A stretch of 32,000 nt of DNA from Ureaplasma parvum serovar 3 str. ATCC 27815 (GTDB lineage Bacteria; Bacillota_I; Bacilli_A; Mycoplasmatales; Mycoplasmoidaceae), in NCBI RefSeq assembly GCF_000019345.1, contig NC_010503.1, positions 30,001 through 62,000 on the forward strand. The letters are read 5' to 3'. Position numbers: made by a program. Positions 15,001 to 30,000 of this stretch are shown here, piece after piece (the stretch's first letter is position 1; each line of letters opens with the position of its first letter).

Positions 15001-18000
15001 CACTTCCTGTTTTAATATGTCATGGTATTAATATGTTATTAAATTTAATTATTGCTTTTATAAAAATCAATAATGTTTATAAAGCCAAAATCCATAAAAT
15101 GAATGAGAATGAATATATTATTTTTGCTTATGCTCAAAAATTAAAGGAAAAAGTATCGATAAAAAATAAATAATTTACACAATAAATTTACATAAATATT
15201 TATTTTATTTTTTTAAAAAATTGTTCTTTTTTTTTTTTTTTTTTGCTTTATAATTAAAAAACATTCAAGTTGACTATAAATTTGAGTATTTACACTTCAT
15301 ATTCAATGATGCAAAAGCATTATTAGTTAGGAAAAATTTATGAAAAAGTTAAAATTAATCACTTTAAGTTTATCGCCTATTCCTATCGTCGCGATCATGG
15401 CTACAGCATGTAGTACAACAAAAAAAGAAAAAGAAGTAGATCATAAACAAGATGAATTAACTACTATAAATAATAATTTACAATTAGAATATCCACAAAA
15501 CAAAGATATAGAAACATCAGCAGCAATAAAGGAAGAAATAAAGCCTTTAAATTTGCCGTCTGGTGTTGTTTTTAGCATTAAAGAAATTAGTCCTAAAGCA
15601 AATGATGAAAGTACATTAATAGTTAAATACACCCTTAAAAAGGGAAACATAACTAAAGAATTTAAAAAAGAAATTAATGGATTTAAAAAAATTCGTAAAG
15701 ATCAAAATATCGCTAATCTAAAAGACATGCATGATGATTTTAAAACAATTTTTAATAACATTAAATTAAAAGATACGTTCGATTTTAAACTAAAAGGTCT
15801 TTTTAACTCAAATTTTGGTGAATACGATAAATTATTACCATCACAAATTATTAACAATTTTGCACAAGGTGTAGAAACTAGAATTAATACTAACCAAGAT
15901 CGTTTAGGTATTGAAGTTATAGATGTTAGTTATCCAAATAAAAATTTTGGTTCTGCTAATCGTGAAGGTAATTTAAAAATGTCACTATTAGTAACTGATA
16001 AAAAAACAAAACAAGTTTTCATTAAATCAATAATTGCGTATGGTTTTAAAACTAATGCAATGGGTTTAGATGAGAATGGCTCAATTCCAGGTGGTGGTGC
16101 TGATCTTGTTAAACCTAAAGTTGATGAAAATAATTATTTTAATAAAACTCAATTAGAAAGATATGAAATTGATAATCAAGCTTATTTAAATGGTTTAAAA
16201 GGCCAACATATGGGTAAAACTTGACAACAAGTGCGTCCTGAACTTGGTGATAATGAACAAAAAATTAATGAATTTGATCAAAAAGCTAAAGGTGTAAGTC
16301 AAGATGCTTATGCGTCTGCTGCTTATAAAGGTTTTACACTCCCAGTGTATGATAAAAATGGTGATTTTAAAGGTTTATCAATTAATGAAAGTAGTTACGG
16401 CCAAGCTCGTTCATGAGTTGATACAAGAGGTCGTGACGAATGAAAAACCACTGGTTTACCACGAACTTTACCAAACGAAAAATATCGTGATGAAGCTTTA
16501 CAAACATTAGGGATTAGTTCTTTAACTTTAAAAGATGGAAAAAAAGATACTTGAGATAAATCTTCAGGAACAACATGAATCTTAGATTATCAAAAAACAA
16601 ATGATAATAAATATCCTACAAAATGATATTTTGCAACTAATTTACATGTTGCAGATACTATTACAGATAAAACAACTTCTATTGATTTAATGAAATTAAT
16701 GGATAGTGTTAAAACTAAAACAACTTTACGTTTAAGTAATTTAGATGAAAATATTTATCGTTTTGGTTTTGCAAGTAAAAATAACAAATTTTTATTAAAT
16801 CATGGTCTTAAAAAAATATATGATGGTCGAAATTTCTTAAAAACTAAACCTACAGAATACTTAACAGAACAACAAAAAGAAAAATACAAAGATGCAGGTA
16901 GTTTTGTTGATTTTGCAGTTTTTGAATTAGATTTCGAACAATTAAAATTACTTAATGTTTGAAACAATCAACTTAACTCAAATGGCGGTGTAATTACTAA
17001 ATATGATCATTCTTCTGCACAAGATCTTGCAAAAATTATTACAAGTGATTATGCAAACCATAGTGATAAACAAATTAAATTCTTATCCAAATCATATTTA
17101 AATGATTATTCTAAAATTGATGTTCCTCTAAGATCTACATCATATAAATTCGAAGGAAAAGATGAATTATTTGCTCTTGGATGACCTAATTCAACTAGAG
17201 ATGGTTTTTTTGAACGTTATGTGGATGATGATCAAACTAAATATCGTACAACAGATAATTTTAGTTTATGAACAAATTCTGATTATCGTTTTTTTGGCAA
17301 ACTAACAGAGCAAGAAGGTGGGCAACCCGCTTTCCCAACAGAACGAACTGAACGTGGTAATTACTTGTCTTATGCGATTGGTTACCGTAGTTTTATCGAT
17401 AAACCTGGTGTTCTAGATGCCTTTATTTCTGCTCCTCATACTGGCAATGATTTATATAAATCTCTTGATGGTAAAAAATATATTAATATGGGTTTGGAAT
17501 ATATGCCTAGACATTATGCTCCAGCAGGAGGTGCATCTGGTTCAAGTGTGCGAAATCAAAACAATGAAATTGTAGGAATTTATCATGTAAGTAATGAATT
17601 TGCTAGCACCGGCTTAGCAACTGCTTTTCGTTCTGAAGGATATGATTATAAAGGCTTATATGGTGATAAATACAAAGAATTACCACAATATGACTTAATT
17701 TATGGCGGTGGAAAAGATCAAGCTACAGGTCAATCATATCGTGAAAAAATGAAAGAAATATATAAAAATAATAACAATATTAAAACAGCATTATTTCCAA
17801 ATGGTTTTGACCAATATGATGAAAAGTTTAAATTTAATAACAATCAAAGTAAATAAAGGTTAGGTTTAAATAATAAAAATGAAATTTATTAAACGTAAAA
17901 CAAAATTATTAACGATTACAATTGGTGCAGTTGCTGTTAGTTCAATCTTATTAGGAGGAATTTTTTATGGTACAAGTCAAAAAAGTCCCTCAAGTTTTGG

Positions 18001-27000: not shown

Positions 27001-30000
27001 ACAAACGATTATGCACAAAAACCAAATGAACAAATAAAATTTTTATCAAAATCTTATTTAAATGATTATGCACGTATTAATGTACCTTTGGATTCAAAAT
27101 ACAATCAGGCTTTTGACACAAATAAATATGATGAATTATATGCTGTAGGTTGGCCAAGCTCTGCTTCTGATTATTTCTTAGACCCAATTAAAGATCAGAA
27201 ACAATTTGAATCAAGACGTGAAAGTTATAGTTTATGAATTAATTCTAATTATCAATTTTATAATAAATTAAATCATAATCCTCCTTTGTTTCCTCTTACA
27301 CAAATAAATCGTGGTGATTTCTTGTCATATAATATTGGTTATCGTAGTTTTACTAATAAACCTGGATTGCTTGATGCTTTTATTGCTAGTCCTATTACTG
27401 GTAAAACTGTACATAAATCAACTGATAATCAAAATTATATTGGGTTTGGTTTAAATTATTTACCGATGCATTATTCTCCAATTGGGGGTTCATCAGGGAC
27501 AAGTCTACGTAATCAAAAAAATGAATTAGTGGGAATTTGGCATGTTGGTAATGGTTTTGCCCAAACAGGTTTGGCTGCTGCTTTTCGATCTGAAGGCTAT
27601 GATTATCATGGATTATATGGTAGTTATAACTTACCACAATATGATTTGATTTATGGTGGTGGAAAAGATCAAAAAACTTCCTATCGCCAAGCAATGATGG
27701 CGTTATATAAAAATAAAAATATTGCAACCGCTTTATTCCCTAATGGTTTTGGTGAAGATCAAATCCCCAGTGCTTTTAAATTTAAAAATTAATTAACTTT
27801 TATATTGAATTAGAAAATTATATGATGAATACAAAAACATTTACTTCCGTTAATAGAGTAATTTATGATGATAACTATTCGCTAAAGCAACAACAAAAAA
27901 GTAGCTTTATCAATCAATTTTTAAAAGGATTGTTATCTGCTATTACTTTATTATTCTTTATTTTACTTTTAATCTTTGCTGAAAATACGTTGTTTGGTTT
28001 AGGTTTTGGTGATGAGAATAAATCAATGATGATTTCAAAATCGCTAAATGCTTTTTTTGATTTACACAGCCCTAAATATTTACAACTTAACTTTTTAATT
28101 GTATTTCGCTTTTTTATTTTAAGTTTTACACTGTTTTATACCTTAATCAAAAATTTCACAAATCTTTATTGGCATCGAGCAACCATTAAAAAATACTTAC
28201 CATGATTCGTTTTATATTTAGTGATTGCAACAATTAGTTTCTTACTATTTTTTACTTTTTTTAGTGTTTGACCAAAAGAAGTTTTTAATTTAGTATTTTT
28301 ACTATTAGTGTTATTTTTATTAAATTTAAGTTATGAAATATTTAATTATTTTATTTCTAAAAAAACTAACCCTTTATTATACGATAATTATAAAAATTTA
28401 ATTATTGCCATGGTTTTTCAAGCGTTATTACTATTATTTGTAATAATTACCCCCCTTGTATGAATTAATACAGGTAAAAGTCCTAACTTTTTATTTGTTG
28501 ATAATCGTTTCTACACACGCATAGTTGATATCTTCACTGTTCAATCAGGTAAAAATTTTATTATTTTAATTGCTTTCTTCTTCTTTTTAATTACATTTAT
28601 TGTTTTAGCAAATACTAATTTTTTCGCTTTAGTAATTAATAAACGTTACGATCGTAATTATGTTAAGAATAATTTATGATTTATTTTACTTTTATTTAGT
28701 GCTATATTTATTTGATTATTAAGAGTTTTTGCATATAAGCACGAAAATGAAAATCTACCGGTTGGTAACAACCATTTATTATGAGTTTATATTTTACAAA
28801 GTTTTTTTGCAATAATCATATTAATACTATATATGGTATTCACTTTAAAAAAACGCTTAAGCGTAAAGAGTAGTTTAAATACTTTATTAAATTTAGTAGT
28901 CACTCAAACAATTCTAAGTTTAAGCTTGTTTTTAGTAACATTATTTAATTCTAAGAGTGTGGTTTCTTTAATTAATGTTTTTATTACAATTACTGTACAA
29001 ATGAGTGTGTTTGGAATCTACATATTTCAAAATAAAAACATTTCAACTAAATTATTGGTGCTATTAAAGGTTATTATGATTTTAATTATTTTAACCGCAG
29101 CAATTGTAGGTTTTGATTATTTATTAACATCTGATCATCATAATAACTATTTATTCTCAAACATTCAACCGAAAATGAATTTAGTACAAATCATGTTGTT
29201 ATTAAATTTTAGTTTGAATTTTACTTTAATTAGTTATTTAACAATTAAATTTGCAATGGTAATTTTTAAAATCAATAAGCTAAATAAGGAGTTAAACAAT
29301 GAAAAAAAATAAATCTAATCTGACACCTACAACAAATTATTTTGATGTATTTAATACTTATAAAGAGAAAAAAGCAAGTGTTGATTTAATTACATATGAA
29401 GAATTAATGGCATCAGTTTTATTTGATAATAAATTAGGTTTTGAATCAGAGGTTTATTTAGATTTTGTTAAAAAATTTACATTAGCTTTTGAAAAAAAAC
29501 TAGATATTTGATTTGAAAATTTTATTATTAATTTCAATTTAAATTTAAAATTTTCAACAACTATTATGATTCCAATATTAGTAACTAAAGCTAATTCTAC
29601 AACTGATGCAATTAATTTTAGAAATGATCAAAATCCTGTTTATAATAATTTTTTAATTTCATATAACCAAAAAATTAAAAAATTATTACTTCAAAATCAT
29701 CCTGTTCAAATTCTTCCTCATTTGATTTTATTTAAATCAAATCTTAATGGTAGTTTAGTGCTCGTATTTAGTGAAAAAATTATCGCTTCAATTGAACAAA
29801 AATCAGGAAATTAAGTATGCAATTAAAAGATTTAATTAATAAAAAAAAGAATTTAAATAATATTAATTTAAAAGTGAGTAACGAACGTAATATTTTTTTA
29901 ATTAATATTATGAAACTAAATCAGCGATTAACTTTTTTTAGTAAAAATGCTTTTGAAATAAAAGAATCAATTCTAAGTTTAAAGCGTATTTATAATATTA

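Follow-up and report, generated by a model that had tools for sequence, protein, structure and literature searches.

The question raised by positions 15340-27792 of the window (the whole 32,000-nucleotide stretch analysed here, positions 30,001 to 62,000 of contig NC_010503.1 of Ureaplasma parvum serovar 3 str. ATCC 27815) is whether the five tightly packed genes found there encode an immunoglobulin (Ig) capture-and-cleavage system of the MIB-MIP type and, if so, where the unit ends and how its three proteases relate to its two binders. MIB-MIP is one of the main ways in which mycoplasmas evade antibodies; among the common agents of chorioamnionitis and neonatal disease are U. parvum and U. 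urealyticum. The answer reached here, with high confidence, is that the region is the MIB-MIP locus UU043-UU047 and most likely the front of a long operon that continues into a seven-gene F1-like X0 (type 3) ATPase cluster. The MIB-MIP identification, with two binders and three DUF31 proteases, had already been made in a first-pass annotation based on the sequence alone, and it is confirmed by NCBIfam scores far above cut-off and by matches to the structurally characterised proteins MIB83 and MIP82.

The array lies in DNA that is 74% A+T (the window as a whole has a G+C content of 25.6%), and the reading frames were obtained with translation table 4, in which TGA codes for Trp. Each of the five genes contains 5-9 in-frame TGA codons, and under table 11 each gene of the region falls into fragments. 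With table 4, five intact genes are found on the plus strand, three encoding DUF31 lipoproteins and two encoding membrane-anchored proteins with a proline-rich stalk: MIP1 (15340..17856, 838 aa, UU043 by position), MIB1 (17879..20227, 782 aa, UU044 by position), MIP2 (20258..22762, 834 aa, UU045), MIB2 (22799..25174, 791 aa, UU046), and MIP3 (25189..27792, 867 aa, UU047). The gaps between them are, in order, 22, 30, 36, and 14 nt. The start codons of MIB1 and MIB2 are separated by exactly 4920 nt, whilst the other repeat families have offsets of 4909-4941 nt between the first and second units and of 5030-5048 nt between the second unit and MIP3. The coordinates, lengths, gaps, and 4920-nt offset given previously are therefore all right, as judged by the table 4 reading frames and the repeat families. 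The same five-gene order is found in strain L006, an independent U. parvum assembly, in which MIP2 and MIB2 are 100% identical to the proteins of the window, MIP3 is 99.7% identical, and MIP1 and MIB1 are 98% identical, with no frameshifts.

The evidence for the proteases comes from several models. NCBIfam NF045842 (MIP_near_MIB, cut-off 305 bits) scores 739.5, 777.8, and 739.0 bits with MIP1, MIP2, and MIP3, respectively, the match in MIP3 covering residues 176-866, and NF045841 (cut-off 125 bits) scores 402-418 bits with the three. Pfam DUF31 (PF01732) is matched with E values from 1e-80 to 1e-84 (2e-80 for MIP1, which also matches Lipoprotein_17). Alignment to MIP82 (7ADK chain B) gives E values of 4.9e-128 for MIP2 and 1.2e-116 for MIP3. 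Part of MIP2 has in fact been seen at the structural level: its residues 133-249 were solved as PDB 3JVC, and those from about 128 to 239 as PDB 2KRT, with identity to the native residues of both entries, each of which is a structural-genomics domain from U. parvum. This 3JVC-type Ig-like domain is kept in MIP3 at residues 167-282 (E 6e-16).

The catalytic triad is intact in all three proteins: His436/Asp524/Ser733 in MIP1, His433/Asp522/Ser735 in MIP2, and His469/Asp561/Ser769 in MIP3, compared with His450/Asp539/Ser759 as published for MIP82 (PMC7935358). The S1-like triad motifs reported at first reading are present in each of the lipoproteins as TNLHV (His), DFAVFE(L/I)D (Asp), and GG(A/S)SG(S/T)S (Ser), and they are conserved over 91 homologues. 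Given that the 7ADK chain is described as S759A, the GGASG of MIP1 and MIP2 could have been taken as the sign of a lost nucleophile. This idea was rejected: the Ser occupies the second GGxSG position in 89 of the 91 homologues, so GGASG is the normal active form, and in an 861-aa relative the Ser of the second GGxSG position falls at residue 759. Each MIP has a lipobox (ATAC, IASC, and AASC, read directly rather than with a predictor) after a hydrophobic N-terminal segment. In MIP3, an Asn-rich linker of about 33 aa (27% Asn) follows the lipobox directly; together with an identity of 46-47% to MIP1 or MIP2, this bears out the earlier description of MIP3 as the more divergent copy with an N-rich insert.

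Is the partner protein equally clear? MIB1 and MIB2 score 756.5 and 759.3 bits with TIGR04526 (cut-off 150) and 133 and 139.7 bits with the Protein-M domain model TIGR04524 (cut-off 40); residues 130-775 of MIB1 align to MIB83 (7ADJ_A) with an E value of 1.1e-144; and the Pfam domains MIB_arm, MIB_M1, and MIB_M2 (PF26361, PF26360, and PF26364) are recorded for the L006 protein that is identical to MIB2. The first-pass annotation had proposed profile searches for DUF31 and for MIB/Protein-M-like domains and had named a lack of structural similarity as the outcome that would speak against it; both families were matched. Both binders have the architecture of an N-terminal anchor, a Pro-rich tether, and a globular part made up of arm, M1, and M2. 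The anchor is a single hydrophobic segment at about residues 8-31 without a lipobox Cys, and the tether, at about residues 70-195, contains 27-28% Pro, in agreement with the transmembrane anchor and Pro-rich stalk noted before; the equivalent part of MIB83 is disordered in cryo-EM (PMC7935358). The C-terminal domain had also been called leucine-rich, which its composition does not bear out, a Leu content of 8.4-9.3% being ordinary.

Two kinds of relative come close to these proteins without being the same thing. Protein M (MG281 of Mycoplasma genitalium) and IbpM of M. pneumoniae have an M1/M2 Ig-light-chain-binding domain of the type found in MIB, and the structural relatedness of MIB and Protein M has been described (PMC7935358). 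Protein M, however, differs from MIB in its arm domain and lacks a partner MIP; it blocks the paratope but does not displace antigen that is already bound. The Ureaplasma binders match it through the shared M domain alone (TIGR04524); their best full-length matches are the MIB model TIGR04526 and MIB83, and a MIP gene adjoins each of them. Similarly, other DUF31 (PF01732) lipoproteins, such as the MAG2960 family, have the same S1-like peptidase domain, but they lack an adjoining MIB and are not matched by the MIP models, whereas every MIP gene here lies 14-36 nt from a MIB gene. One such protein is encoded in the window itself, 11 kb upstream of the array and without a MIB neighbour: a 747-aa DUF31 lipoprotein of the MAG2960 family at 2024-4267 on the plus strand (NF045843, 468 bits, cut-off 400; PF01732, E 2e-22).

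The locus is a known and annotated one, and its identification, although right, is not new. MIP2, MIB2, and MIP3 have exact matches in AAF30450.1, AAF30451.1, and AAF30452.1 of U. parvum serovar 3; AAF30451.1 is still labelled "Uncharacterized protein UU046" in UniProt, whereas the NCBI names for the proteins of the locus are already MIP and immunoglobulin-blocking virulence protein. A published MIB-MIP phylogeny took in U. parvum ATCC 27815, reviews give both human ureaplasmas as MIB-MIP carriers, and UU045-UU054 was flagged in 2009 as a block horizontally exchanged with M. hominis (PMC2751442). No new kind of system is thus added by a locus that has been both annotated and placed in published MIB-MIP phylogenies. 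The system is conserved in both human Ureaplasma species: for MIP2, MIB2, and MIP3, U. urealyticum orthologues lie within the same 90%-identity clusters.

The best-studied counterpart is MIB83-MIP82 of M. mycoides subsp. capri GM12 (MMCAP2_0583/0582; 7ADJ, 7ADK, and 7ADM), with the same protein families, domain plan, and triad. In both organisms, a one-strand tandem array of paralogs ends at an ATPase cluster (MMCAP2_0581-0575 in M. mycoides capri), but M. mycoides capri has four MIB-MIP pairs with the MIB first, whereas in U. parvum two MIBs alternate with three MIPs, with a MIP at both ends. The closest characterised relative is the locus of Mycoplasma (Metamycoplasma) hominis (MHO_3200-MHO_3120), a species that shares the human urogenital niche. 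Its MIP is 51-54% identical to MIP1 and MIP2, and its MIB is 65% identical in the globular part; it has a single MIP-MIB pair with the MIB directly before the ATPase genes, whereas in U. parvum the pair is duplicated and a deep-branching MIP3 is found between MIB2 and the ATPase genes. The Ureaplasma MIB-MIP and ATPase genes have been reported to lie near their M. hominis counterparts, and the M. mycoides capri cluster near the M. bovis/M. agalactiae group (PMC12994834); the MIP tree obtained here agrees with this.

How the system would work can be pictured from the characterised homologues, from which each of the following steps is taken. MIB, anchored by one N-terminal helix and held outward on its flexible Pro-rich tether, would clamp the light chain of a surface-bound antibody and twist VH off VL, such that the antigen is released. 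The exposed VH-CH1 linker would then recruit the lipid-anchored MIP, a thrombin-like serine protease with a His/Asp/Ser triad, which would cut off VH. The ATPase would be needed in the cell for protection against antibody, possibly to reset the very stable MIB-MIP-Ig complex. By homology, then, the Ureaplasma proteins are expected to bind Ig and to cleave it in a MIB-dependent fashion. In M. hominis, cleavage of human IgG and IgM is lost when the MIP gene is disrupted (PMC10581049).

Where does the unit end? The first-pass annotation considered five genes on one transcript. The tight spacing of the genes and the finding, by a generic terminator scan, of no plus-strand terminator-like site within 15340-27800 are in keeping with a single transcript. 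However, the end of the unit had been placed too early, since the first of the ATPase genes starts only 29 nt further on. Of the seven genes that make up the F1-like X0 cluster, five are inside the window, directly after MIP3, on the plus strand and with several overlaps. The first, UU048 (27822..29312), encodes a 496-aa protein with 12 transmembrane segments (NF045937 MSC_0624_12TM, 317 bits, cut-off 70) and is in the same gene order in strains L002 and L006. UU049 (29299..29814), which overlaps it by 14 nt, encodes a 171-aa DUF2714 protein (PF10896, E 8e-48). It is followed by UU050 (29817..30731), the 304-aa gamma-like subunit of the F1-like ATPase (NF045933, 362.5 bits, cut-off 95), and by UU051 (30721..31200), the epsilon-like subunit (NF045935, 132.6 bits, cut-off 42). 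In the longer version that begins at an upstream in-frame ATG (30688), the NF045935 match sets in at residue 16; 30721 is the probable start, giving 159 aa, as called in L002. The fifth gene, a subunit of the MSC_0620/UU052 family (31190..32000; NF045829 UU052_fam, 269 bits, cut-off 210), is cut by the end of the window.

The link between these genes and MIB-MIP is well documented. An F1-like X0 (type 3) ATPase was found in all 126 MIB-MIP-bearing strains examined in a 2026 study, and in 90% of them its genes are immediate neighbours of a MIB or a MIP gene. The ATPase co-purifies with MIB and MIP, and M. mycoides capri, the one organism in which the requirement has been shown, depends on it to withstand agglutinating antibody (PMC12994834). 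Because this cluster follows MIP3 and is linked to MIB-MIP, the functional unit is about twelve genes rather than five. By analogy with M. mycoides capri, U. parvum would also require the ATPase.

Several points weigh against the reading of the region as a working MIB-MIP-ATPase operon. No experiment on the Ureaplasma MIB and MIP proteins themselves was found in the literature. Two of the five MIP paralogs of M. gallisepticum are inactive in vitro (PMC13459921), so an intact-looking MIP sequence is no guarantee of activity. Finally, the case for co-transcription of the array comes only from the spacing of its genes: a generic sigma-70 promoter scan gave 106 sites against 127 expected, and the promoter and terminator scans alike yielded as many sites as expected from shuffled sequence or fewer, which in AT-rich DNA is no better than chance and speaks neither for nor against an operon.

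Another question is that of how such an operon would be switched on. In the 166-nt intergenic region between a PQ-loop-like gene and MIP1, there is a run of 18 T on the plus strand (15227..15244), which is the sole run of at least 10 A or T in the 32-kb window. It lies directly after a -35-like hexamer, TTGTTC (15221-15226), and before a -10-like hexamer, TATAAT (15249..15254), which precedes the MIP1 start codon by 85 nt and is a candidate element of the operon promoter. The tract varies in length: there are 18 T in the window and in strains L008 and L009, 17 in L014, 16 in L007, and 15 in L006. The intergenic flanks are identical in five of these six loci, L006 having some 19 extra nt upstream and one extra A downstream, whilst three more assemblies stop inside the T tract and a fourth stops a few nt after it. 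The tract may be a rheostat for expression, or a slipped-strand switch for the whole MIB-MIP-ATPase operon; alternatively, it may be neutral, or its variation may be partly homopolymer error in the assemblies. Since the spacing between the two hexamers would be 19-22 nt, which is longer than the usual optimum, a rheostat, a neutral site, and a partial artefact are each to be considered. One addition of the present analysis is this poly-T tract of variable length at what is likely to be the promoter of the operon. Immediately upstream of this region, after rsmG, lie two adjacent plus-strand genes for small PQ-loop-like membrane proteins (14395-14757 and 14757-15173, of 120 and 138 aa, the second with a weak match to PF04193), which look like the halves of a split PQ-loop/SWEET-like transporter.

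A further addition concerns the way in which the two binders evolve together. MIB1 and MIB2 are 75% identical overall and 69% identical in the globular part, but 91% identical in their first 200 residues. At the DNA level, the first 300 nt are 96% identical, and the homogenised tract, 17879..18238 in MIB1 and 22799..23158 in MIB2 (both on the plus strand), has 15 mismatches in its 360 nt in the strain of the window. A sliding window shows synonymous divergence of 0.04-0.4 over the first 150 or so codons, which cover the anchor and tether, versus about 1 elsewhere. In L006, the first 591 nt of the two genes (12540-13130 and 17472-18062) show no difference at all and then diverge abruptly from nt 592, and the DNA directly upstream of the two start codons is unrelated. 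Two haplotypes of the MIB1 5' end are present in the population, and two further strains have that of the window. These observations are direct evidence for recurrent gene conversion, confined to a portion of MIB that makes no contact with the antibody; such conversion keeps the anchor and tether of the two binders alike. Ongoing conversion of this kind and the variable poly-T tract both bear on differences between strains in the expression and surface presentation of the system.

Several short conversion patches among the paralogs had been proposed at first reading. What stands is the one tract at the MIB 5' ends, and in the MIP pairs the same sliding-window analysis revealed no window of low synonymous divergence. 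A short stretch of 93-98% identity at 17680-17721, 22598-22639, and 27631-27672 was considered as a patch and rejected: it encodes the family-wide motif LPQYDLIYGGGKDQ, and its identity is therefore explained by selection. Elsewhere in the MIB pair, codons ~394-443 (window ~19060-19210 and ~23980-24130, in the M1 domain) differ from the rest of the gene in having a non-synonymous divergence (pN) of 0.28 close to the synonymous divergence (pS) of 0.30, and this patch, measured in windows of only 50 codons, may be a surface that is locally relaxed or diversifying.

A separate matter is the unequal number of proteases and binders. MIP1 and MIP2 are 62% identical. In a neighbour-joining tree, they are sisters (100% bootstrap), joined first by the M. 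hominis MIP (86%) and then by the M. primatum-group MIPs (77%), whilst MIP3 is at the base of the Ureaplasma/M. hominis/M. primatum-group clade, which itself has 100% support. The tree and the identities therefore point to an old duplication of a [MIP-MIB] segment at about the depth of the M. hominis split. This tandem duplication generated MIP1-MIB1 and MIP2-MIB2 upstream of the deeper-branching MIP3, a protein of the same domain plan that is an older paralog or else one that evolves fast. Naming the extra MIP from gene order was tried and abandoned, as the relatives point in opposite directions. MIP3 begins 14 nt after MIB2 and directly precedes the ATPase cluster; the resulting order, MIB-MIP-ATPase, is that of three M. 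primatum-group loci and also of M. mycoides capri (PMC12994834), whereas the order in M. hominis, MIP-MIB-ATPase, matches a unit in which the MIP comes first. In an alternating array with an odd number of genes and with both orders in relatives, the extra copy cannot be named from its position.

The earlier claim that MIP3 has no cognate MIB thus finds no support, given the MIB2-MIP3-ATPase order as in relatives and the cross-compatibility of paralogs elsewhere. In M. mycoides capri, all 4 x 4 combinations of MIB and MIP cleave IgG, sIgA, and IgM (PMC7935358), and loci in which MIB and MIP counts differ are described as common (PMC12994834), so the mechanism does not require a cognate partner.

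Do the paralogs nevertheless do different things? The strong divergence had been read in the first-pass annotation as a sign of different Ig-class or host specificities. The divergence itself is confirmed, but it does not on its own imply different class specificity, because the equally divergent M. mycoides capri paralogs (63-70% and 59-64%) are class-agnostic, cross-compatible, and redundant, cleaving IgG, sIgA, and IgM in every pairing (PMC7935358). Some specialisation is possible, as M. gallisepticum, the MIBs and MIPs of which have been tried as a cross matrix, has MIP paralogs that differ in host range (PMC13459921) and copies that are inactive. We regard it as a possible but rather doubtful proposition that the paralogs are specialised rather than redundant, be it for Ig classes or subclasses, for lambda versus kappa light chains, or for VH families, or else that they diverged in escape from host antibodies against these exposed proteins. 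It would fit with the age of the duplicates, which at 69% (MIB globular part) and 62% (MIP1/MIP2) are nearly as far from one another as each is from its M. hominis orthologue, with the retention of five intact genes in two strains, and with the clusters in which MIP2, MIB2, and MIP3 have orthologues in both human Ureaplasma species. The near equality of pN and pS around MIB residues 394-443 (0.28 and 0.30) and the peaks of non-synonymous divergence in the arm and in the C-terminal 90 residues point the same way, but such windows of 50 codons each in saturated, AT-rich DNA are only suggestive; moreover, MIB binds the light chain, which is common to all Ig classes. Another idea, that at least one of the five genes has lost its function, is in decay, and persists only because the duplication has yet to be purged, is improbable. 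It draws on the inactive MIPs of M. gallisepticum (two of five; PMC13459921) and on the unequal MIB and MIP counts and truncated copies that are common in mollicutes (PMC12994834). Yet the five open reading frames here are full length, with triads, anchors, and lipoboxes intact, their counterparts in an independent strain match them at 98-100% identity without frameshifts, and pN is well below pS in every pair (0.17 versus 0.45, 0.23 versus 0.50, and 0.34 versus 0.52).

A more specific possibility concerns an old problem. The ureaplasmas have an IgA1 hinge protease that cuts human IgA1 at Pro235-Thr236, an activity known since 1984 but without a sequence definition; it is a cell-surface serine protease to which no gene has been assigned (PMC8593674). 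The three intact surface serine proteases of the locus, of which one is an outlier, are candidates for this activity. The outlier, MIP3 (UU047), might be MIB-independent or have a different cleavage site, as would be the case if it were the IgA1 protease: it branches below the Ureaplasma/M. hominis/M. primatum-group clade (support of 100% for the clade and of 77% for the grouping without MIP3), U. parvum and U. urealyticum both have it, and the M. hominis locus contains no equivalent. However, a basal position in a neighbour-joining tree may be a long-branch effect, MIP3 scores as a full-length MIP (739 bits) in which N-terminal Ig-like domain, core, and C-terminal motifs are all retained, and it occupies the canonical MIB-MIP-ATPase position. 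The MIPs share only the "surface serine protease" part of the description of the IgA1 enzyme, and those that have been characterised cut between VH and CH1, not at the Pro-Thr bond of the hinge (PMC7935358, PMC8593674). The DUF31 lipoprotein at 2024-4267 is another candidate, in a comparison limited to this window of the genome. A departure of MIP3 from the MIP mode of action is very unlikely, and it is just as hard to credit the combined proposal that a protease of the locus, most plausibly MIP3, is the Ureaplasma IgA1 protease and that the operon is tuned by T15-T18 slippage before MIP1.

Two other observations were made in passing. Fragments of UU046 and UU047 are filed under Chlamydia trachomatis (CPR87354.1, CPR87324.1, CPR87342.1, and CPR87334.1), on a 12.5-kb contig; these are almost certainly due to Ureaplasma contamination of a clinical C. 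trachomatis assembly. Finally, between the MAG2960-family gene and mnmG, a cluster of defence- or mobile-type genes occupies 5518-11749, mostly on the minus strand. It includes genes for a protein with a SocA/Panacea antitoxin domain (6053-6526), a Schlafen/AlbA_2 protein (6576-7643), a fragment of an Eco57I-type methylase that is probably truncated, its match starting at profile position 72 (8740-9573), and an AlbA_2/HATPase_c_4 regulator (10343-11749). In L006, type I restriction-modification genes lie just upstream of the conserved regulator and mnmG, so this region appears to vary between strains.

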